This document shows, in pieces, positions 743-11,607 of a stretch of 64,000 nucleotides of DNA. This DNA comes from Myxococcota bacterium. GTDB taxonomy: Bacteria; Myxococcota_A; UBA9042; PHBI01; JAWLBL01. A program made the translations under genes and the position numbers. Within the stretch, counting starts at the first letter, position 1; every line of letters begins with the position of its first letter. A model generated the notes under the pieces. The model was given only the letters and a program-made list of their open reading frames with translations, did no database searches and was not told the origin of the DNA. The stretch is from positions 192,001 to 256,000 of the forward strand of contig JAWLBL010000008.1 in assembly GCA_041687695.1 (NCBI GenBank). Direction: 5' to 3'.

Positions 743-3142
743 ATGGTCTCGAGCCCGCGGGCCGACATAGGATGCGACCGCGTGAGACGTCTCTTCGCCA
801 GCCTGCTGCCGACCCGCACCGCCCGCATTTCCGCGGGCGTGCTGGCGGCCATGTCCGTCGCGCTCTGCTTCGTGCCGGGCTTCGGGTCCCTCGGCTATTA
901 CTCGAGCCTGGCGCTCGCGCTGGTCGGCGGCGTCCTGACGGGCCTGGTGGGCGCCAGCGTCGCGCGTCGGACGGCCGAGTCCCAGACCGGCACGCCTGGC
1001 GGCCCGCGTGTCTCGACGGCGTTCTGGGCCGCGGCCCGCACGACGCTGGCCCTGTTGGCCGTTCCGCCGCTGGTGCTGCTGTTCAACAGCCTGTGGGTCA
1101 AGAACTGCGACCCCATCGGCAGCGTCGGCTTCTATGTCGCCGGCGCGGGGCTGTCGATGCTGTTCGCCTCGCAGGTGGGCGCCTTCGCGGGCCTGTGGCG
1201 CCGCCGGACGGGGCAGGGGCTCTTGCTCTTCGTCGCCTTCTGGTTGGCGTTCGTCCTGCGCGATCTGGCGCACCTGTACCTCGAGCCGCCGATCTTCGCC
1301 TACAACGCCTTCGCCGGCTTCTTCTCCGGGGCCGTCTACGACGACCTCATCGAGCTGGACGGGCGCCTGGCGGCCTTCCGGCTGAGCAACCTGGCCCAGC
1401 TGGCCGTGCTCTGGGGCGCGGCGGCCCTGCTGTGGGACCCGGCCGAGCGGCGCTTCCGGCTGGCCCGGCTGAGCGAGGGCCGCGTCCGCACCTGGGCGGC
1501 GCTGGTCGCGGCGGTCGTGGTCGCCGCGGGGCTACACGGGGCGCGCGGCCACCTCGGCTTCGAGATCGACCGCGCCCACATCGAGCGCGTCCTGGGGGGC
1601 CGCCTCGAGAACGACCGCATCGTCCTGGTCTACGACCGCGACGTCATCCCGCCCGACGAGGCGCGGCGCCTGCTCGAGGACCACACCTACCGCCTGGAGC
1701 AGCTCGACCTGGCCCTCGGCGAGCGCTTCCCCGAGCGCATCACCAGCTACGTCTACGGCTCGTCGCGCCAAAAGCGCCGCATGATGGGCGCCGACCGCGT
1801 CTACATCGCCAAGCCCTGGGTGCGCGAGATCCACATCAACCGCGTGCCCTACGGCGCGGCCGTCATCCACCACGAGCTGGCGCACGTCGTGCTGGGCGCG
1901 TGGGCGCCCGGGCCGCTGCACGTCCCGGCGCGGATGTGGCTGTTCCCGCACATGGCCATCGTCGAGGGGGCCGCCGAGGCGATGGAGTGGTACGGCGGAA
2001 GCATGACCCTTCACCAGTGGAGCGCCGCCATGCGCCGCGAGGGGCTGGCGCCCGATCTGGCGAGCATCATGGGCCCGGACGGGTTCTGGTCGCAGGCCGC
2101 CGGCAAGGCCTACACGCTCAGCGGCTCGTTCATCCGCTACCTGCTGGACACCCACGGCCCGGCGCCCTTCCGCGCGCTATACGGCGACGGCGACTTCGAG
2201 GCGGCCTACGGCCGTCCGCTGCCGGCGCTCATCGCCGAGTGGGAGGCCTTCATCGACGGCGTGCCGCTGCCGGACGACGCGCTGGCGCTGGCGCGCGAGC
2301 GCTTCGACGTCAAGGGCATCTTCCACCGCACCTGCCCGCTGGAGATCGCGCGCCTCGAGGCGCAGGCCTCGGCGCTGGCCGACGCCGGCGAGTACGACGG
2401 GGCCATCGCGCTGCACCGCCAGATCGTCCGCTTCGTCCCCAAGGACGCGCGAAAGCGCGTGCCCATCGTCGAGCTGCTGGCCCGCCGGGGCGACGCCGAC
2501 GGCACGCAGCGCGAGGTGGCCGAGCTGTTGGCCCTGGGCAACGTCGACCCCGTCACGCGGGCCTACGTCCGAGAGCTGTCCGGCGACGCGCTGTGGCGCG
2601 CGGGCAAGTACCTGGACGCGCTGAAGCTGTACCAGACCCTGGCCGCCGAGCCGCAGAGCGAGGACCGCCTGCGCAACGTGCTGGTCAAGGCGGCCGTCCT
2701 GGCGAGCGGCCAGCGCGAGCCCATCCTGGGGCCCTACCTGCTGGGGCGCGGCAGCCGGGACGCCGTCGAGTACCTGGTCGCGGCGGTGGCCGACCTGCCC
2801 GGCGACACGCTGGCGCTGTACCTGCTGGGCCGGCGCCTGTCGAGCGAGGACGTCCACGCCGAGGCCGTCCGCGTCCTGCGCGCCGTCATCGCCGCGCTCG
2901 ATGGCGCGGACGGCGGCCCCGACCGGGGACGTGACCCGCTCGACGACGCGCTGCGCCGCGAGTCGCTGCGGCTGATGGCCCGCAGCCTGTTCTACGTGGG
3001 CGAGCTGGAGGAGGCCGAGCGCGCCTTCCTGGAGGCGGCCCAGCTGTCGCCCAAGGACGGCCAGCGCCTGTGGTACCAGGACTGGGCCAGCCGCGCGCAG
3101 TGGCTGAAGAAGCGCCTGCGCACGGCGGGCAACTTCATGTGA
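743..3142 (+). CDS. Multi-TM membrane protein with gluzincin-type (peptidase MA-like) domain and C-terminal TPR-like helices; true start may be a little downstream
   Basis: Several hydrophobic segments in the first ~270 aa, HHELAH (HExxH) followed by EGAAE, then helical TPR-like repeats (AGEYDGAIALH, AGKYLDALKLY, VGELEEAERAF). Confidence 0.7.
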   Translation: MVSSPRADIGCDRVRRLFASLLPTRTARISAGVLAAMSVALCFVPGFGSLGYYSSLALALVGGVLTGLVGASVARRTAESQTGTPGGPRVSTAFWAAARTTLALLAVPPLVLLFNSLWVKNCDPIGSVGFYVAGAGLSMLFASQVGAFAGLWRRRTGQGLLLFVAFWLAFVLRDLAHLYLEPPIFAYNAFAGFFSGAVYDDLIELDGRLAAFRLSNLAQLAVLWGAAALLWDPAERRFRLARLSEGRVRTWAALVAAVVVAAGLHGARGHLGFEIDRAHIERVLGGRLENDRIVLVYDRDVIPPDEARRLLEDHTYRLEQLDLALGERFPERITSYVYGSSRQKRRMMGADRVYIAKPWVREIHINRVPYGAAVIHHELAHVVLGAWAPGPLHVPARMWLFPHMAIVEGAAEAMEWYGGSMTLHQWSAAMRREGLAPDLASIMGPDGFWSQAAGKAYTLSGSFIRYLLDTHGPAPFRALYGDGDFEAAYGRPLPALIAEWEAFIDGVPLPDDALALARERFDVKGIFHRTCPLEIARLEAQASALADAGEYDGAIALHRQIVRFVPKDARKRVPIVELLARRGDADGTQREVAELLALGNVDPVTRAYVRELSGDALWRAGKYLDALKLYQTLAAEPQSEDRLRNVLVKAAVLASGQREPILGPYLLGRGSRDAVEYLVAAVADLPGDTLALYLLGRRLSSEDVHAEAVRVLRAVIAALDGADGGPDRGRDPLDDALRRESLRLMARSLFYVGELEEAERAFLEAAQLSPKDGQRLWYQDWASRAQWLKKRLRTAGNFM

Positions 3143-3203
3143 CGCGGCTTTTTTTGACGGCCGGCGCGCCCCCCGCGACAGTGCGTCGCGGAGGGATACG
3201 ACC

Positions 3204-3413
3204 ATGGACGTCAATCCGGAGATCGCGCGTCACCTCGACCGGGCGCTCGCGGAGGCGGGGCTGCCGGGCCTGTCGCTGCGGCAGGTCGGGGACGTGTTCA
3301 CCCTGAGCGCCGGGCTGCCGATGACCCCCGAGACGCTGCGCGCCTTGATGCGGGCCTGGGAGGCCTTCGAGGAGGCCGGCCTGCCACGCGAGACGCAGGG
3401 ACAGGCCGGCTGA
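3204..3413 (+). CDS. Small hypothetical protein (69 aa)
   Basis: ATG with GGAGGG RBS, GC-rich third codon positions, fills the gap between neighbours. Confidence 0.6.
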   Translation: MDVNPEIARHLDRALAEAGLPGLSLRQVGDVFTLSAGLPMTPETLRALMRAWEAFEEAGLPRETQGQAG

Positions 3414-3419
3414 GGCTCG

Positions 3420-3752
3420 TCAGGCCGGCTCTTCGCTGAGGAGCTCGCGCTTGCGCTCGACGTCCTTGAACTCGTCGGCCGTGTCGAGGGGCTCCTTCTG
3501 CTCGGTGATGTTGGGCCAGGAGCCCGCGAGCCGCTCGTTGAGCTCGACGTACTCCTTCCACTTGTCGGGGAGGTCGTCCTCTTCGAAGATGGCGTTGACC
3601 GGGCACTCGGGTTCACAGGCCCCGCAGTCGATGCACTCGTCGGGGTTGATGACGAGCATGTTCTCGCCTTCGTAGAAGCAGTCGACCGGGCAGACGGTCA
3701 CGCAGTCGGTGTACTTGCACTTGATGCAAGGCTCCGCAACGATGTAGGCCAT
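3420..3752 (-). CDS. fdxA: 7Fe-type ferredoxin (FdxA family)
   Basis: [29 protein letters not shown]...[12 protein letters not shown]; start placed at ATG 3752. Confidence 0.93.
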
Positions 3753-3884: not shown

Positions 3885-4385
3885 TCAGGGCTGCGAGTCC
3901 CTGAGCTCGGGCTCGACGAGCTGCAGGGCGGGGCCGAGGTGGCGGCGCAGGCGCGTGAAGTCGCGCTCGCCGAACAGGCGTGACAGCGGGCCGATGCGGC
4001 CGCGGCTGACGAAGACGCGGTCGGCGCCGAGGTCGGTCGCGAGGCGCAGGATGCTGTCGGCGAAGCGGCCCGAGGCCATGCGCGTGACGCACGGCACCCC
4101 CGCTTCCTGGGCGGCGGCGCTGACCTCGGCCAGGCGCTCGGCGCCCGCGCTCTGGGCGCACGCGTGGGCGAGGTCGCCGATGGCGCGCGTCTGGCCGGCG
4201 CCGACGAAGCCGCGTGTGGTCAGGCACTCTCGCAGGTGTTCCTGGCGGTCCTGGTCCTCGAGGTAGACCACGGTCAGGCGGGCCCCGGTGGCGCGGGCTT
4301 CGGCGAGGGCGGCGTGGAGGAGCGTGTCGCCGATGCGCGCGGGCGTGAGGATGGCGAGGATGTGACGGTCGGACCGAGCGGTCAT
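3885..4385 (-). CDS. Universal stress protein (USP) family
   Basis: HILAIL...AEARATGARLTVVYL...SGRFADSILRLATDLGADRVFVSRG matches the USP fold pattern. Confidence 0.75.
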   Translation of the reverse strand: MTARSDRHILAILTPARIGDTLLHAALAEARATGARLTVVYLEDQDRQEHLRECLTTRGFVGAGQTRAIGDLAHACAQSAGAERLAEVSAAAQEAGVPCVTRMASGRFADSILRLATDLGADRVFVSRGRIGPLSRLFGERDFTRLRRHLGPALQLVEPELRDSQP

Positions 4386-4404
4386 GGCGAGACCCTCCGA
4401 GCCT

Positions 4405-5901
4405 TCACGGCGCCCACAGGACGCCGAGCAGGGGCCACCAGAACTTCATGAGCAGAAAGACGCAGCCGAAGCCGATGAGGTTGAGCCACAGGCCGCTCTG
4501 CGCGACCTGGCGCGGGGTGTAGTAGCCGGCCGACCAGGCGATGGCGGTCACCGGGGTCGAGATGGGGAACATGAACGCGAAGCCGGACGGTAGCACGATG
4601 CACATCGTCATGGCGCGCGGGTCGAGGCCGTAGTGCTCGGCGAGGGTGAGCGCGGGCGGCATGAGCATGGCGACGACGGCCGAGTTGCTCATCAGCTCGG
4701 TGAGGGTGCCGCTGAGCAAGGCGATGACCATCATCAGGACGAGGGGGGACAGCTCGCGGCCGCCGAGGACGGCCTCGGTCAGCCACAGGGCGGCGCCCGA
4801 GCGGTCCATCGCGCTGCCCAGGGCGATGGCGCCGCCGTACATGACGATGACCCCCCAGTTCACGTTCTCCTCGACCTCGGGCCAGGTGACGGCGCCGAGG
4901 GCGAAGAGGGCGGCCATGGCCAGGATGGCGATGTTGGCGATGCCCAGGGTGTCGCCGAGCGCGGCCCAGGCGGCGATGGTGACGACCAGGACCAGGGCGA
5001 CGGCGCGCTCGCGGCCGCTCATCTTGCCCATGTCGCGCAGGCGCCCCTCGAGGACGGCGATGGCGTCGGCCGTCGAGGCGACCTCGGGCGGGAAGCGCCA
5101 GGCGAGCATGACGGCGCCGACGGCCAGCATCAGCACGACCAGCGGCGCGCCGAAGGCGATGAACTCCATGAAGGTGATGGTCCAGGCGTGGCCGGTCGCC
5201 TCCTCGAGCAGGCCGATGGCGAGCGGGCCGCGGCCGCCGCCCAGGACGGTCAGGCTCGAGCCGATGATGCAGCCCCAGGCGAGCGCGAAGAACAGCGCCG
5301 CGCCCATGCGGCTGCGCAGCGCCTTGAGCTTCATGGCGCGCGCGATGTCGAGGACGATGGGGAAGACCATCGCGGCGACGGCGTGGCCGCTCATCACGGT
5401 CGAGGCGACGGCGCACAGGCCGAAGACGGCCAGGACCAGGCGGCGCGGCGTCCCGCCGAAGGCGCGCACGGTCAGGGTGGCCAGGCGCTTGGACAGCCCC
5501 GATCCGATGAGGGCCGCCGAGAGCATGAAGGCGCCGAGGACGAAGAAGACGACCTTGGAGCCGAAGAACTGGTAGGCCTCCTCGGCGCGCATGACGCCGA
5601 AGAGCGGCAGCGAGGCGATGGCGACCAGGCTGGTGATGGCCAGCGGCAGGAGCGAGGTCACCCACAGCGTGCCGCAGAGCGCGAAGATGCAGAGCGTGTT
5701 CCAGCCGGCCTGGGCGAGGCCGTCGGGGGGCGGGACGCGCAGGAGCAGGGCGAAGCAGGTGACGACGAAGGCCAGCCAGAGCTGGCGCTTCAAGCGGCTG
5801 AGCAGGACGATCGCGATGGGGCGGCGATCGATCTCGAACTGGCGGGCCGCCGGCGGCGCTGGGGGTGAAACGGAGGGCGGGCTGGGCTGCGGCTGGGCCA
5901 A
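4405..5901 (-). CDS. SLC13/DASS family anion:sodium symporter (sulfate/dicarboxylate)
   Basis: LWVTSLLPLAITSL, VFFVLGAFMLSAALIGSGLSKRLA, VNWGVIVMYGGAIALG, LTELMSNSA, FAFMFPISTP. Start placed at TTG 5901 just after the radical SAM stop (uncertain). Confidence 0.88.
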   Translation of the reverse strand: MAQPQPSPPSVSPPAPPAARQFEIDRRPIAIVLLSRLKRQLWLAFVVTCFALLLRVPPPDGLAQAGWNTLCIFALCGTLWVTSLLPLAITSLVAIASLPLFGVMRAEEAYQFFGSKVVFFVLGAFMLSAALIGSGLSKRLATLTVRAFGGTPRRLVLAVFGLCAVASTVMSGHAVAAMVFPIVLDIARAMKLKALRSRMGAALFFALAWGCIIGSSLTVLGGGRGPLAIGLLEEATGHAWTITFMEFIAFGAPLVVLMLAVGAVMLAWRFPPEVASTADAIAVLEGRLRDMGKMSGRERAVALVLVVTIAAWAALGDTLGIANIAILAMAALFALGAVTWPEVEENVNWGVIVMYGGAIALGSAMDRSGAALWLTEAVLGGRELSPLVLMMVIALLSGTLTELMSNSAVVAMLMPPALTLAEHYGLDPRAMTMCIVLPSGFAFMFPISTPVTAIAWSAGYYTPRQVAQSGLWLNLIGFGCVFLLMKFWWPLLGVLWAP

Positions 5902-5906
5902 GCGGG

Positions 5907-7169
5907 CTAACCGTTGTCGACGACGCCGACCTCCCGCACGCGCAGGGCGCGGCGGAGATCGCTGAGGCGCGCGGAGGTGCGGCGGGCGAGGCGCGTGCCC
6001 ATGACGCGGTGGCGCAGCGACGACCAGAAGCCGTTGTCCTCGCTGAAAAAGCGCGCGTCGAGGGGCGTGGTGACGATGGCGATGTCGCGGACGAGGTTGC
6101 AGCTCAGGCGGCGCCTGCGGACGGCCTGGTAGAGGTGGCCGTACAGGCCGGCGAGCTCCTCGAGGGAGGGCTGGAAGCGCTCGATGTCGCTGTCCTTGCG
6201 CATGTCGCGGCCCTTGAAGGGGCGGTAGATGGGCAGGACGGGCAGGACGCCCAGGGAGGTCAGGGTCTCGATGCCCTCGTGGGTCGAGGCGAGGGGCTCC
6301 AAGCCGACGATGAGGTGGCAGGCGACGCCGCCGGCCGGGAAGACGGTGGTGGCGTAGGCGAGGGCGTCGAGGAAGCGCTGGCGGCCGATGGCGCGGGCGG
6401 GGCCGGGGCAGATGCGGTCGAAGCGCTCGGGGTCGAAGATCTCGAGGTTGTAGCTGACCGCGTCGACGCCCATCGCGTAGGTGCGGTCGATCCAGTCGTC
6501 GGTCTCGGGCGGCAGGGCGTCGACGGCGACCAGGACGTCGAAGTGCTTCTTGATGGCGGCGACGTAAGGCTCGAGGAAGGCGACGCCGCCGTCGCGGGTG
6601 CCGAGGTGGCCTACCGACAGGTAGACCATGTCGATGGGGTTGCCGTCGCGGGCGACGCGGATGGCCTCGAGGACGTCGTCGACCGGCAGGCCGCCGTGGG
6701 TCGGGGCGTCCTGGCCGACGCTGCAGAAGCGGCAGCGGTCGGCGTCGGTCAGGAAGGCGCAGCGGTTGGTGGGCGACAGGGCCAGGTAGGGGCCGTGGAC
6801 GGTGCCGACGCGGCCGAAGGGCAGGCCGGTCGAGGTCCGGTGGCCGTAGAAGTGGGGGTGGTGCGAGACGCGGACGGGCGTCCGGGGCGCGGTGGGGCCG
6901 GCGACGGTCAGGGCGTACCCGTCGCCGTGGCGCACCAGCTCGTAAGGAGAAGCGTGGGTGACGTCGCGCTGGATGGGGGCGGAGACCCACGTCTCCTGCG
7001 GCAGCACGAGGTCGAGGTCCTCGGCGCTGCCGAACAGGGCGTGGCCGGTCGCGCCGAAGCCGTCCTGCTCGAGGGCGGCGCGCACGTCGGGTGGCAGCCG
7101 CAGGCCGCGCATCATCAGCTCGAGCTTGAGCAGGCCCGGGTTGGAGAGGATCTGGGCGGGCGTGTTCAT
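5907..7169 (-). CDS. Radical SAM protein with CX8CX2C motif (MSMEG_0568-like spacing)
   Basis: NRCAFLTDADRCRFCS, MGVDAVSYNLEIFD, CHLIVGL; ATGA overlap with the JAMM gene. Confidence 0.85.
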   Translation of the reverse strand: MNTPAQILSNPGLLKLELMMRGLRLPPDVRAALEQDGFGATGHALFGSAEDLDLVLPQETWVSAPIQRDVTHASPYELVRHGDGYALTVAGPTAPRTPVRVSHHPHFYGHRTSTGLPFGRVGTVHGPYLALSPTNRCAFLTDADRCRFCSVGQDAPTHGGLPVDDVLEAIRVARDGNPIDMVYLSVGHLGTRDGGVAFLEPYVAAIKKHFDVLVAVDALPPETDDWIDRTYAMGVDAVSYNLEIFDPERFDRICPGPARAIGRQRFLDALAYATTVFPAGGVACHLIVGLEPLASTHEGIETLTSLGVLPVLPIYRPFKGRDMRKDSDIERFQPSLEELAGLYGHLYQAVRRRRLSCNLVRDIAIVTTPLDARFFSEDNGFWSSLRHRVMGTRLARRTSARLSDLRRALRVREVGVVDNG

Positions 7170-7621
7170 GACGGCACGAACCCCCCGGCCTCGTCGCTCC
7201 AGGCGAAGGTCGCGAATCCGCGCACGCCGTCGTCCTGGGCGTCGAAGACCACGTGGGCGACGCCCGGGTAGAGCGGCCCGTCGCCGAAGGGTGACAGGGC
7301 CTGCTGGACGTCCTCTTCGGAGAAGTAGGCGCCCACCCGGACGTGGCTGTGGAAGATGGCGACGACGGTCTTGCCGTCGGCTTCGGCCCGCTCGATGAGC
7401 AGCGGGTTGAGCAGGTAGGCGCGCTCGGCCGTGCGCGGGTAGGTGTCGGGGTCGAGCGCGTGGTACTTGTCGGCGAGGTTGTCGGCCAGGACGAGCTCGG
7501 GGCCGTCGGGGCCGGCGAGGAGCAGGCCGCAGGCCTCGCGCGGGAACCAGGCCATGATGTGGCGGTCGATGGCGGCGCGGAGTTTGGGCTGCGCCAGGAT
7601 GGACTGTGGCGTCGGCGTCAT
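7166..7621 (-). CDS. JAMM/Mov34 (M67) metalloisopeptidase
   Basis: FPREACG glutamate plus HSHVRVGAYFSEED (H-S-H-x7-S-x2-D). Confidence 0.92.
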   Translation of the reverse strand: MTPTPQSILAQPKLRAAIDRHIMAWFPREACGLLLAGPDGPELVLADNLADKYHALDPDTYPRTAERAYLLNPLLIERAEADGKTVVAIFHSHVRVGAYFSEEDVQQALSPFGDGPLYPGVAHVVFDAQDDGVRGFATFAWSDEAGGFVPS

Positions 7622-8007
7622 GGGCGGGCCTCGTCGGGCGCGGCCCAGGCGTGGCCGGGCGCGGCGCCCGAGAGGTGGGCCAGCGCGCTGAGGGCGGCCA
7701 TGGCGCCGGCGAGGCGATCGTCGGCCGGGGCCGGGGCGACGACGTGGGCGTCGGCGGCGGGCGGGGCCAGGGAGACGTCCGGGTTGAGGTCGGCCAGACG
7801 CGGGCCCAGGCGGTCGGCGAGGGCGGGGGACAGGGACAGGCGTCCGACGCCGGCGGCGGCCAGGTACAGCGCCGCCTCCTCGGCCGCGCGGCCGTCGCCC
7901 TGGACGTGGGCGGCCGCCGCGAGCAGGCGCGTCTGGCCGGCGCCGCCCACCTCGGCGAGCAGGACGTGGCGCGCGTAGCGCTGGATCTGGGTCTCGGTCA
8001 GGGACAT
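7618..8007 (-). CDS. Short degenerate ThiF/MoeB-like protein (N-terminal Arg-finger helix kept, nucleotide loop degenerate)
   Basis: MSLTETQIQRYARHVLLAEVGGAGQTRLLAA is a MoeB-type N-terminus; QGDGRAA replaces GxGGLG, followed by AALYLAAAGVG and LNPDV; no Cys. Confidence 0.8.
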   Translation of the reverse strand: MSLTETQIQRYARHVLLAEVGGAGQTRLLAAAAHVQGDGRAAEEAALYLAAAGVGRLSLSPALADRLGPRLADLNPDVSLAPPAADAHVVAPAPADDRLAGAMAALSALAHLSGAAPGHAWAAPDEARP

Positions 8008-8011
8008 CGGT

Positions 8012-8290
8012 TCAGCGGCCGCCCGCGATGGCGGGGACGATCTGCAGCTCGGCGCCGTCGGCCAGGGGCGTGTCGAGGTTGTCGAGGAAGCGGATGTCTT
8101 CCTGGTTGGCGTAGATGTTGATGAAGCGGCGGACGTTGCCCTGCTCGTCGCACAGCTTGCTCTTGATGCCCGGGTGGGCGCCCTCGAGGTTGTCGAGGGC
8201 GGCGCGGACGCTGTCGCCGTCGACGCTGACGGCGTCCTGGCCGGCGGCGAACTTGCGGAGCGAGGCGGGGATCTTGATGGTCACGGGCAT
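8012..8290 (-). CDS. MoaD/ThiS/CysO-type ubiquitin-like sulfur carrier
   Basis: MPVTIKIPASLRK...RRFINIYANQEDIRFLDNLDTPLADGAELQIVPAIAGGR; 92 aa; Gly-Gly followed by one extra Arg. Confidence 0.93.
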   Translation of the reverse strand: MPVTIKIPASLRKFAAGQDAVSVDGDSVRAALDNLEGAHPGIKSKLCDEQGNVRRFINIYANQEDIRFLDNLDTPLADGAELQIVPAIAGGR

Positions 8291-8301
8291 CGGCGGGTTC
8301 C

Positions 8302-9207
8302 TCAGAGCGCGGAAGGGGCGGGGGCGGGCGCGCGGCGGACCAGCACGCGGAAGCGGTCGCGGGCGATCTCGCCGGCGGCCAGGATCTGGTGGCCGTCCTC
8401 GCGCAGGCTGCGCGGGACGTTGCGGGCCGGCTCGCCGCGGCGCATGACGACCTCGACGAGGGCGCCGGGGGCGAGGGGCTCCAGGGCGAGCTTGGTGCGG
8501 ACGTAGGTCATGGGGCAGAGGTCGGCGGTCACGTCGACGCGGCGCGCGAGGCCGCCGCAGGTGGGGCAGTCGGCGCCTTCGGGGAGCGGGACGTGGCGCA
8601 CGCGGCCGCGCAGGCCGTCCACGGTGGTGACGAAGCCGGTGGCGGCCGCGACGTCGCCCGACAGGAGCGAGATCGCACGGAGGGCCTGCAGGTGGCCGAC
8701 CACGCCGGCCATGGCGCCGAGCACGCCCGAGCGGGCGCAGGTCAGGACCTCGTCGGGGGCGGGCGGCGTCTCGAACAGGCAGCGAAAGCACGGGCCGTGG
8801 CCGCCCGCGACCGCGACGACCAGCCCCTCGAAGCGGATGACGCCCGCGATGACCGCGGGCAGGCCGCGTGCGACGGCGAGGTCGTTGACTAGGAAGCGCG
8901 CCGCCGGGTCGTCGGTGCAGTCGAGGACCAGGTCGACCCCGTCCAGGAGCTCCGCGGCCGTGTCGTCGTCGAAGCGGCCGAACACGGGCTCGACCTGGAC
9001 GCCGGGGACCACCTGGGTCAGGCGCTCGGCCGCGCAGGCGACCTTGGGCCGGTCGAGGTCGGCCGTGCCGAACAGGACCTGGCGCTGCAGGTTCGACAGC
9101 TCGACCCGATCGGGGTCCACCAGACGCAGGGCGTGGCCTGCCTCTGCCAGACTGAGGGCGGCCGGCGCGCCGAGGCCGCCGACGCCGATGATCAGGACCG
9201 AACCCAT
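8302..9207 (-). CDS. ThiF/MoeB (E1-like) adenylyltransferase fused to a C-terminal TusA/SirA domain
   Basis: GVGGLG, DPDRVELSNLQRQ, DCTD, CFRC/CPTC zinc pairs, TCARSGVLG; the tail VDVTADLCPMTYVRTKLALEPL...EPARNVP is TusA-like. Confidence 0.9.
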   Translation of the reverse strand: MGSVLIIGVGGLGAPAALSLAEAGHALRLVDPDRVELSNLQRQVLFGTADLDRPKVACAAERLTQVVPGVQVEPVFGRFDDDTAAELLDGVDLVLDCTDDPAARFLVNDLAVARGLPAVIAGVIRFEGLVVAVAGGHGPCFRCLFETPPAPDEVLTCARSGVLGAMAGVVGHLQALRAISLLSGDVAAATGFVTTVDGLRGRVRHVPLPEGADCPTCGGLARRVDVTADLCPMTYVRTKLALEPLAPGALVEVVMRRGEPARNVPRSLREDGHQILAAGEIARDRFRVLVRRAPAPAPSAL

Positions 9208-9231: not shown

Positions 9232-9265
9232 TTTGTAATAATGGTGACCTACTAAGTCAACAATA
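9232..9265 (-). promoter_or_regulatory. Putative promoter of the E1/Ubl operon overlapped by an Rrf2/IscR-like palindrome
   Basis: AT-rich island; minus strand TTGACT-N17-TACAAA; imperfect palindrome TAATGGTGAC-N7-GTCAACAATA (9239-9265). Confidence 0.6.
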
Positions 9266-9302: not shown

Positions 9303-9332
9303 AAAACGCAAACGGCGACCCGAGGGTCGCCG
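9303..9332 (-). terminator. Rho-independent terminator downstream of ahcY
   Basis: Stem CGGCGACC/GGTCGCCG with a 4-nt loop, followed on the minus strand by TTTGCGTTTT. Confidence 0.7.
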
Positions 9333-9371
9333 CCTGGTGGCCGTCTTCGGGCCGGGGCCTGAGCCAGGCGC

Positions 9372-10659: not shown

Positions 10660-11607
10660 CTACTCGGCGAGCTTGTCCTCGAGCTCGGGCAGCTCGACCA
10701 TCGTGCCGTTCAGGAAGAAGGTCGGCGTCCCATCGACCTTGAATCGGTTGGCCTCGTCGAGGTCGCGCGCGAGGACCGCCACGAGCTGCGGGTCCTTCAT
10801 GTCGGCCTCGAAGCGCGCCATGTCGAGGCCCGCCTGCTGGGCGAGCTCTCGGATGACCTGGGAGGTCAGGCGCTTTTGGTTCTCGTACAGGAGATCGTTG
10901 AGCGCCCAGAACTTGTCCTGGCGCGCGGCGGCGAGCGAGGCGACGGCGGCCTCGCGGGCCATCGGGTGGATGTCGAGCGGCAGGTGCTTGACGTACAGCA
11001 CCGCGTCGCTACCCGCCACCAGCTCCTTGAGCGGCCCGGACGCCGCCCGGCAGTAGGGGCACTGGTAGTCGGTGAACTCGACGACGACGTGCTTGGCCTT
11101 GGGGTCGCCGAGGCGCGGTGAGCCCGTGAAGTCGAACTCGGCCTTGACCGCCGTGCGCTGCAGCTCCTTGAGCAGCTCGCGCACCACCTGCTTTTTGCTC
11201 AGGCCCTGACCGACCAGCGCGACCGTCTGGTTCGCCAGCGTCGTCGCCCGCTCGCAACGCTTGGGGTCGTGCAGGCTCTCGAGGAAGCTGCGAGGCGCGC
11301 CGCAGGGGTCGAACTGCTCGGAGAAGACCTGCAGCAGGATCTCCCGCTCGGCCGCGTCCAGGTCCTTGACGTCCAGCCAGGCCGGCAGGGCCGGACCGGT
11401 CGCCGGGCGGGCCGCCTGCGCGTCGGCGCCCGCGGTCGTCGGGCTGGTCGCCACGGGCCGCGACTCGCCGGCCGCGGCGGGCCGGTCCTCCCGGGTGTTT
11501 TGACAGACGCACTGCGTCAGCGTACAAAACGCCAGGATCACGAGCGAAATCGGGCGAGGCAGCGCGCCGCGCGTCCGGGCCCCCGCGATGGGTCTCGAGC
11601 TCGTCAT
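10660..11607 (-). CDS. DsbA-family thioredoxin-fold protein
   Basis: VVVEFTDYQCPYC, KHLPL, cis-Pro motif GTPTFFLNG; N-terminal hydrophobic segment. Confidence 0.88.
   Translation of the reverse strand: MTSSRPIAGARTRGALPRPISLVILAFCTLTQCVCQNTREDRPAAAGESRPVATSPTTAGADAQAARPATGPALPAWLDVKDLDAAEREILLQVFSEQFDPCGAPRSFLESLHDPKRCERATTLANQTVALVGQGLSKKQVVRELLKELQRTAVKAEFDFTGSPRLGDPKAKHVVVEFTDYQCPYCRAASGPLKELVAGSDAVLYVKHLPLDIHPMAREAAVASLAAARQDKFWALNDLLYENQKRLTSQVIRELAQQAGLDMARFEADMKDPQLVAVLARDLDEANRFKVDGTPTFFLNGTMVELPELEDKLAE

Follow-up and report, generated by a model that had tools for sequence, protein, structure and literature searches.

An operon with two modules

The operon described here lies in a 64,000-nucleotide stretch (the window) of contig JAWLBL010000008.1, positions 192,001 to 256,000, from a Myxococcota bacterium (assembly GCA_041687695.1) whose genome (G000; 7.97 Mb) is 99.3% complete. 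The minus strand carries all seven genes, spanning positions 9207-3885, which encode in order an E1 fused to TusA, a ubiquitin-like carrier (Ubl), a dead E1, a JAMM protease, a variant radical S-adenosylmethionine (SAM) protein, a DASS/SLC13 transporter and a universal stress protein (USP) (Table 1). The successive intergenic distances are 11, 4, -4, -4, 5 and 19 bp, where the 5-bp gap presumes for DASS a TTG start at 5901, the sole start codon upstream of its conserved EIDRR motif. Third-codon-position GC content is 0.95-0.98 across all seven genes. The coordinates and the family scores agree with the gene order and family labels given in a first-pass annotation of this DNA. As that annotation had also stated, no ThiG, MoaE, CysM or E2 was found among the operon genes in the open reading frame list or family scans; PADLOC matches at the operon cover the E1 part only, and the operon contains no E2 protein or domain. 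Below we present evidence that the operon belongs to a sulfur regulon, that its two modules share a single operator with sulfite reductase, that its radical SAM protein is probably not the downstream enzyme of the Ubl carrier, and that the radical SAM and DASS genes point to an undescribed sulfate import route.

Table 1. Features of the operon and its flanks (window positions).
Feature	Position	Strand	Supporting evidence
E1 (ThiF/MoeB) fused to TusA (CPM motif)	8302..9207	-	Pfam ThiF 3-215, TusA 223-292
Ubl carrier, 92 aa	8012..8290	-	PF02597; NF041918 61.6 bits, cut-off 60 (ThiS/SAMP1)
Dead mini-E1, 129 aa	7618..8007	-	weak ThiF match, residues 11-59
JAMM/Prok-JAB protease	7166..7621	-	Prok-JAB; intact Glu29 and HxH-x7-S-xx-D
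Variant radical SAM protein	5907..7169	-	Radical_SAM; NF045502 175.9 bits, cut-off 125
DASS/SLC13 transporter	4405..5901	-	TIGR00785 244.7 bits, cut-off 198.6; start inferred
USP	3885..4385	-	PF00582 26.1 bits
FdxA-type ferredoxin	3420..3752	-	NF045490 158.8 bits, cut-off 135
Palindromic operator, TGAC-N7-GTCA core	9241..9263	-	conserved upstream of operon in relatives
GC-rich hairpin and T-rich tail after ahcY, probable terminator	9313..9334	-	fold of region; terminator scan did not call it

The radical SAM gene travels with the transporter gene

We compared the host genome with 60 relatives, counting as orthologues radical SAM proteins of at least 45% identity (18 relatives; two genomes with 27-38% matches were dropped), DASS proteins of at least 41% identity (19 relatives; paralogues at 28-38% were dropped) and JAMM proteins with E below 1e-19 (33 relatives; two weak hits were dropped). 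Both the radical SAM and the DASS gene were present in 18 relatives, the radical SAM gene alone in none, DASS alone in one (62% complete) and neither in 41, and this co-occurrence holds also in genomes where the two genes lie apart. The corresponding counts for radical SAM and JAMM were 17 with both, one (80% complete) with radical SAM only, 16 with JAMM only and 26 with neither. Among the best 80 of 209 metagenome loci, some of which repeat the same organisms, 65 extend far enough to be judged, and DASS was the next gene after radical SAM in 56 of these; natural radical SAM-DASS fusions occur (P0158, a cluster of 4, as well as P0242, P0281 and P0282). The USP gene follows DASS, including where DASS has relocated, yet is frequently missing. 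A complex prediction of DASS with the radical SAM protein, 4Fe-4S and SAM scored 0.25 against a mark of 0.32, favouring neither side.

The two genes can also leave together. Genomes G006, G013, G016 and G017 have E1-Ubl-dead E1-JAMM-ferredoxin at this locus, without radical SAM and DASS; the G006 locus lies on one contig of a genome that is 97% complete, and in G017 the radical SAM-DASS pair has moved to another site with its own copy of the operator. Gene-neighbourhood analysis confirms the linkage of the radical SAM and SLC13 genes to the Ubl/JAMM genes in relatives. It speaks against the central claim of the first-pass annotation, a pathway with the radical SAM enzyme at its centre, accepting sulfur from the carrier: 16 genomes keep JAMM without radical SAM, the same locus persists with both radical SAM and DASS gone, and the radical SAM gene goes with the transporter, against the Sbp sulfate ABC system.

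This last pattern was evident in the distribution of the sulfate-binding protein Sbp (TIGR00971), which was found in 11 of the 61 genomes and in none of the 19 that bear the radical SAM gene. The Sbp-bearing genomes G006, G013 and G016 are exactly the three members of family f3 without radical SAM, and G042 (family f14), which has Ubl-JAMM without radical SAM, also has Sbp. The G016 protein scored 485.8 with the sulfate Sbp model versus 356.9 with the thiosulfate CysP model. The radical SAM-DASS unit seems to take the place of the usual sulfate uptake system, and from this exchange import of a sulfur oxyanion by the SLC13 protein, as originally suggested, is most likely.

The transporter itself does not have both SNT-type motifs of VcINDY-type dicarboxylate carriers. 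Its first binding motif, in alignment with VcINDY, reads S-E/G-H-A with an invariant His (48/48), and is followed by an invariant Arg; a near-invariant Cys is also present. A DASS paralogue in the same genome keeps the SNT motif twice, as in the VcINDY type. The altered first motif is consistent with a different anion or coupling, and we regard the protein as a probable sulfate importer.

One operator joins the operon to sulfite reductase

Of 15 relative stretches, 13 have a palindrome ahead of the operon, and one of the misses had just 47 readable bases. When a matrix trained on 13 sites of relatives, with the host genome excluded, was run on the host genome, the operon site ranked first (32.5 bits) and a sulfite reductase site second (24.8 bits); a third match, on contig C12 (19.9 bits), overlaps a start codon. 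Three shuffles gave no match at or above 16 bits, and at 10 bits there was a weak background of 44 matches in the real sequence versus 3-10 in the shuffles. Of 19 sulfite reductase loci, two without a 5' end were left out, and the operator precedes the gene in 14 of the remaining 17, with downstream controls at 4.2 bits or less; the sulfite reductase label is given by family matches below curated cut-offs together with an adjacent DUF934 gene. The Sbp operons of G006, G013 and G016 also carry the operator (26.5-29.4 bits). The exchange of Sbp with radical SAM-DASS and the common operator together indicate that the uptake slot of the regulon holds either radical SAM-DASS or the Sbp ABC system. 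With the genes linked in relatives and an operator in common with sulfite reductase, assignment of the operon to a sulfur pathway stands.

The reach of the operator is narrower than that of the genes. It was not found before three family f10 Sbp operons (6 of the 11 Sbp loci could be read), upstream of cysM in any of 30 loci, upstream of 15 long operons of other lineages described below (best 6.7 bits), or at 13 of 17 JAMM loci of genomes that lack radical SAM or have it split from DASS; its absence from the long operons and from these JAMM loci indicates that the operator is lineage-limited. The palindrome resembles Rrf2 boxes (IscR/CymR-like). None of the four host Rrf2 genes carries it, and at one metagenome locus an Rrf2 gene lies directly upstream.

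The carrier module and its split E1

The second module co-encodes a ThiS/MoaD-like Ubl with Gly-Gly, an E1 and a JAB protease, the combination of the Ubl/E1/JAMM sulfur-carrier operons of Iyer et al. 2006 (rows 4b-4e), and adds a persulfide-carrier domain, TusA (51.6 bits, CPM motif), that is present in only part of the relatives. The Ubl ends in Gly-Gly-Arg and needs trimming; among 67 Ubls compared, 18 end in bare Gly-Gly, 45 are extended and four lack the motif. Three of these four adjoin an intact radical SAM-DASS pair (genus g3), and one of them may contain an assembly duplication. At the loci of G004, G022 and G048 the E1 pair and JAMM remain, but there is no Ubl. The operon JAMM is the only one found in the host genome, where ThiS (G000:C27:80533-80751) is blocked by a single residue beyond its glycines and would therefore probably depend on this JAMM. 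In a survey in which 30 of 39 thiG loci could be read, ThiS was blocked in 9 of 20 readable genomes with JAMM versus 1 of 9 without (67% complete). Variant carriers were also seen: active E1 and Ubl form one open frame in G010 (L032:5332-6354), G013 (L257:2568-3554) and G003 (L048), and at L112, a locus with two full-length E1s, the Ubl (at 7315) runs past Gly-Gly into a NIL-like domain and would need JAMM cleavage.

The E1 occurs as two complementary genes. The active copy aligns from residue 30-33 of ThiF/MoeB and begins at the first beta strand, so that it has no N-terminal arginine-finger helix (ThiF Arg11/MoeB Arg14), and it conserves the glycine loop, NLxRQ, both CxxC motifs and Cys157. 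The dead copy has no glycine loop, NLxRQ or zinc sites; its Arg10 and Arg13 are invariant (21/21), and Arg13 aligns with ThiF Arg11. Its predicted model (predicted local distance difference test, pLDDT, 89.9) matches Uba4, ThiF and MoeB over 127-129 residues (Z 12.7-15.0) and is a mini-MoeB covering the whole template. Among 114 loci, 31 encode both a fingerless active and a finger-bearing dead E1 and none a fingerless active E1 alone; the others encode full-length E1s only (29), the dead copy alone or with a fragment (14), fragments (9) or none (31). The residues of the two copies complement one another as expected of active and inactive subunits, and together they are a probable heterodimeric E1 in which the dead copy would be the inactive subunit. 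The E1 that the first-pass annotation called degenerate is a conserved complement of the active E1 and not debris. A search for long dead-E1 fusions returned ordinary MoeB proteins and was hence uninformative. In family f10 (L260:7302-8360, L262, L263, L267 and L269) we observed the dead E1 fused to JAMM in one gene of 325-390 aa.

An inactive subunit beside an active one is also the arrangement of SAE1-SAE2, NAE1-UBA3 and Tcd1-Tcd2, and in yeast Tcd1-Tcd2 the inactive subunit gives the arginine finger, as we propose for the dead E1 (PMC12355090 and PMC13139853). Unlike these, the operon pair is bacterial and MoeB-derived, its inactive copy has 129 aa and no E2-binding domain, and its pairing would follow from residue complementarity.

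This resemblance to eukaryotic E1s is one reason to consider that the carrier module performs E2-independent protein tagging of the SAMP/Urm1/TtuB kind, with JAMM as deconjugase, and regulates sulfur-metabolism proteins such as the transporter. Such a role would also fit a Ubl that scores above the SAMP1 cut-off, the retention of JAMM although 18 of the 67 Ubls have bare Gly-Gly, and the failure to find a carrier-type acceptor in the host genome. However, the TusA fusion and descent from operons with CysM/ThrC-like enzymes point to sulfur transfer, the blocked ThiS gives JAMM another job, the operon has no E2, and tagging leaves radical SAM-DASS unexplained. Protein conjugation at this locus has no positive support, and we consider tagging very improbable.

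Probable descent from CysO/Hcy-type operons, and the carrier acceptor

Other lineages have radical SAM-DASS-USP within long operons that also encode ThrC-like and sulfite-reductase-like proteins, TusA, Ubl, NIL, CysM, JAMM, MoeB, cysC, cysH and sat, an architecture of the type catalogued by Iyer et al. 2006 (PMC1779556); there radical SAM-DASS lies between the carrier/CysM/ThrC-like genes and cysC, cysH and sat. Judged from sequence, the window operon is a reduced form of these long CysO/Hcy-type operons, its CysM/ThrC-like acceptors presumably lost. The host genome encodes cysD/cysN, cysH and sulfite reductase, a CysK next to a CysE-like gene, and a canonical CysM (NF008735 443.6, cut-off 413). 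In a 38-row tree this CysM sits on a long branch and does not group with the 31 operon CysMs, which form a clade of their own (100/99 support). No match to the operon CysM exceeded 52% in the 61 genomes, the best host match to the operon ThrC-like enzyme was 28-31%, and none of the host Cys/Met pyridoxal-phosphate enzymes reached the O-acetylhomoserine sulfhydrylase cut-off. Clear orthologues of the operon ThrC-like enzyme were found only in G013, G016 and G017 among the 61 genomes; these (L214, L213 and L215, respectively; 59-62%) stand alone, with no carrier genes or operator nearby. The gene cysK leads the operon in G029, L081 and L091.

The first-pass annotation had allowed that the Ubl might simply serve a MoaE, ThiG or CysM encoded elsewhere. 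For MoaE and ThiG this does not hold, as the host enzymes have their own MoaD and ThiS (a rhodanese-MoeB is also present); CysM and CysK remain candidates. A TtuA-type acceptor was considered and rejected, the two PF01171 matches being TtcA and a TilS-like gene (the latter read from sequence). Two further sulfur genes drew our attention: a CysH-like PAPS reductase domain preceded by a thioredoxin-like segment that contains CxxC (G000:C3:310805-311854, read from sequence), and a GAF-GGDEF diguanylate cyclase gene (L100:13754-14845) between cysC and cysH in a long sulfur operon.

A blocked or bare Gly-Gly carrier, a JAMM and an E1 are presumably common to the CysO and Hcy pathways and to this operon, and the relatives' long operons extend the likeness with CysM and sulfite reductase. 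Unlike those pathways, no carrier-type CysM or MetY was found here, the E1 is in two genes, and there is a radical SAM-DASS module. The pathways meant are CysO-Mec-MoeZ-CysM of M. tuberculosis and HcyS-HcyD-HcyF-MetY of Wolinella succinogenes; that such thiocarboxylate pathways exist is documented (PMC6225789 and PMC5764234). The ThiS/MoaD-JAB-E1 operons of Iyer, Burroughs and Aravind 2006 (PMC1779556, Table 1 rows 4b, 4c and 4e) have the same Ubl, JAB, rhodanese-less E1 and SirA/TusA, and are also linked to sulfate transport, sulfite reductase and cysteine synthase. As given there, those operons carry ABC transporters and synthases, whereas here there are DASS, a variant radical SAM protein and a split E1, with no synthase; the term 'radical SAM' occurs nowhere in the main text of that paper.

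The radical SAM protein and its proposed role at the transporter

The radical SAM protein has a CX8CX2C cluster motif (C137-x8-C146-x2-C149), and this triad and Cys254 are its only conserved cysteines, each present in 48/48 DASS-linked proteins; position 284 is Cys in 16/48. Cys254 is absent from 10/40 distant family members, and a few distant members lack some of the triad. The aromatic residue before the third Cys and the NxE and GxE motifs, which we take to be SAM-binding elements, are apparently retained. The C-terminal helix is conserved, basic and among the protein's most amphipathic stretches, with an arginine invariant in 40/40 of the wider family. Score, triad and a partial TIM barrel fit place the protein in the radical SAM superfamily as an NF045502 variant, with predicted SAM chemistry; in Foldseek its model (pLDDT 88) was closest to lipoyl synthase and then to biotin synthase-type enzymes. 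Scores for TIGR04043 (103.5 bits, cut-off 303.7; a genuine TIGR04043 protein beside a nitrilase scored 555) and LipS2 (21.7 bits, cut-off 270) were low. No protein anywhere in the host genome exceeded the LipS2 cut-off, and a canonical LipA is encoded. A profile search of solved structures with the family alignment gave 0 matches, and matches in the Atlas were unnamed radical SAM clusters only. Close relatives of the protein in the genome collection come from Myxococcota or Deltaproteobacteria metagenome-assembled genomes, and in a 400-genome phylum sample 19/401 matched at E 1e-30, the strong ones all from the same class.

Two known groups bear comparison. NitD/MSMEG_0568 (TIGR04043, nit1C cluster) shares CX8CX2C and is homologous over residues 60-338 (hhalign 99.8%, 26% identity); our protein differs in an extra conserved C-terminal segment, the lack of nitrilase context and a score below cut-off. 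The lipoyl synthases LipA and LipS1/LipS2, a group that provides the closest solved fold and, in LipS2, a weak match, use CX3CX2C and require three additional cysteines for a sulfur-donating auxiliary cluster (PMC9585515), whereas here CX8CX2C is joined by one. With only one extra invariant Cys, the protein lacks the auxiliary-cluster ligands of LipA-, LipS1/2- or BioB-type enzymes.

It is precisely these features that bear on the original proposal, here put in the form that the radical SAM protein inserts sulfur taken from the Ubl thiocarboxylate and not from a sacrificial cluster. The best structural matches are to lipoyl synthase and then biotin synthase-type enzymes, four conserved cysteines leave no evident second cluster and would call for an external donor, JAMM and radical SAM are fused in P0123, and the operon offers no other acceptor. 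Nevertheless the carrier module is retained without radical SAM, radical SAM-DASS is kept in genus g3 beside Ubls without Gly-Gly and apart from the module in G017, some family members lack cluster cysteines, a canonical LipA is present, and the exchange with the sulfate ABC system goes unexplained. We judge sulfur insertion clearly unlikely.

Cys254 allows a different proposal, which we rate as unlikely but as less so than sulfur insertion: DASS would import thiosulfate or another reduced oxyanion, and the radical SAM protein, as an Fe-S protein with a fourth Cys, would split it upstream of the carrier and thereby link both modules; TusA would hand the sulfane sulfur on to the carrier, and the co-regulated sulfite reductase would receive the sulfite. 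In its favour Cys254 is invariant in 48/48 DASS-linked proteins, the radical SAM distribution is nested inside that of JAMM, the operator lies on sulfite reductase and not on cysD or cysH, and YeeE-YeeD provides a precedent of a transporter with a decomposing partner (PMC11073785). Yet the ABC protein that replaces the pair is Sbp-type, sat, cysC and cysH come right after DASS in the long operons, and 10/40 distant members lack Cys254.

Finally, the radical SAM protein might be a maturase that modifies DASS once by radical chemistry and so renders it sulfate-competent. One-to-one co-occurrence and fusion with DASS, SAM-binding elements that appear retained, and the unusual invariant His and Arg and near-invariant Cys of DASS would all suit such an enzyme, but the conserved basic C-terminal helix equally fits a standing subunit; we give the maturase very little credence.

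Relatives of the radical SAM gene also occur in other settings. P0241, P0252 and P0264 are more distant NF045502-like proteins fused to ATP-grasp domains, and in family f14 (L041:7061-9079, L042, L043, L261 and L265) an AAA ATPase and VWA_CoxE pair follows radical SAM, or follows JAMM where radical SAM is missing.

Flanking genes

The boundaries of the operon are those originally drawn, with a ferredoxin downstream and ahcY separately terminated upstream. The fdxA gene comes 132 bp past the operon end, and the ferredoxin stays at the locus even where radical SAM and DASS are absent. The ahcY gene ends 164 bp upstream and is followed by the hairpin at 9334-9313; we rejected it as an operon member, since it adjoins the operon in merely 1/20 relative stretches. 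In most order-level relatives the gene immediately ahead of the operon is DsbA/thioredoxin-like (window 10660-11541 here), and ahcY sits between the two only in this genome and G010. At 743-3413 are genes for a 799-aa membrane protein (TPR repeats, HExxH-like stretch) and a 69-aa protein, both conserved beside rpsT and the ferredoxin in most order-level relatives.

A probable sulfate importer co-regulated with a sulfur carrier

We consider it probable that this is a two-module sulfur-assimilation operon, in which a radical SAM-DASS(-USP) sulfate importer and a carrier kit are co-regulated with sulfite reductase. The substrate, the binding and all chemistry in the scheme that follows are proposals, built on gene content, linkage, co-occurrence, operator and residue complementarity that were seen directly. 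Sulfur shortage would release the operator, and DASS with its radical SAM partner, often with USP, would bring in sulfate, which CysDN, CysH and sulfite reductase (plausibly fed by FdxA) would convert to sulfide. In the carrier module JAMM would trim the Arg after the Ubl Gly-Gly, the active E1 and the dead E1 as arginine-finger donor would jointly adenylate the Ubl, and its conversion to the thiocarboxylate would fall to TusA or to sulfide made by the co-regulated sulfite reductase. The acceptor would be encoded outside the operon, our best guess being a cysteine synthase, and JAMM would probably also mature the blocked ThiS. The radical SAM protein would be the cytoplasmic partner of the transporter, most likely carrying one [4Fe-4S] cluster and SAM and docking on DASS; more tentatively, we suggest that it permits or adjusts uptake in response to the cell's sulfur status. 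Among possible roles at the transporter we would rank a sensor or gate first, thiosulfate cleavage second and a maturase third. A bolder version, which we hold to be possible but more doubtful, is that it is an obligatory subunit gating or maturing a DASS protein with a rebuilt anion site, and that this new two-part importer replaces Sbp-CysTWA in several uncultured lineages and shares its regulation with a carrier kit whose activating enzyme is a heterodimeric E1 of the eukaryotic style.

Several observations weigh against this explanation. With regard to uptake, 31 of the 42 genomes without radical SAM also lack Sbp, and the three clean exchanges are from one family and may represent one or two events. 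The sample of 60 relatives consists of kindred and mostly incomplete genomes, so that Fisher tests overstate the associations and carry no weight here, and its cut-offs were chosen by us. Radical SAM has ties to the carrier genes as well: JAMM is present in 17 of the 18 relatives with radical SAM, one JAMM-radical SAM fusion exists (P0123, on one contig), and in G019, G027, G029, G038 and G046 radical SAM lies behind JAMM with DASS elsewhere in the genome (accompanied in four of the five by a USP-like gene). DASS does not adjoin radical SAM in 9 of the 65 metagenome loci, and the closest solved fold to the radical SAM model is a sulfur-inserting type, lipoyl synthase (Z 18.6, root-mean-square deviation 3.2, 244 aligned). 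The operator was not found at host cysD, cysH, cysK or cysM, and searches of the host genome revealed neither a carrier-type CysM nor a ThrC-like acceptor. With regard to the E1 pair, the arginine finger acts across the dimer yet is reported to be non-essential in MoeB and ThiF (PMC13139853); the main task of the dead subunit may therefore be to scaffold the dimer.

A parallel to the proposed importer is YeeE-YeeD (TsuA-TsuB), in which a sulfur-oxyanion transporter has an essential cytoplasmic partner that is sometimes fused to it (PMC11073785); the folds of that transporter and partner are unrelated to those of DASS and the radical SAM protein, and dependence on the partner is in our case a conjecture. 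In the literature covered (few subscription papers and no supplements) we found no publication on NF045502 or radical SAM with JAMM-Ubl, or on radical SAM-DASS sulfate transport.

These findings supply a testable role, that of transporter partner, for an unassigned radical SAM subfamily, and one also for a DASS subfamily whose binding site is changed. If our explanation is true, many uncultured bacteria without the sulfate ABC system would import sulfate by a currently unannotated route, and the radical SAM fold would serve in transport. The shared operator offers a direct handle on the sulfur regulon in this bacterial group, and the operon may serve as a small bacterial model for the division of a homodimeric E1 into one active and one inactive subunit.

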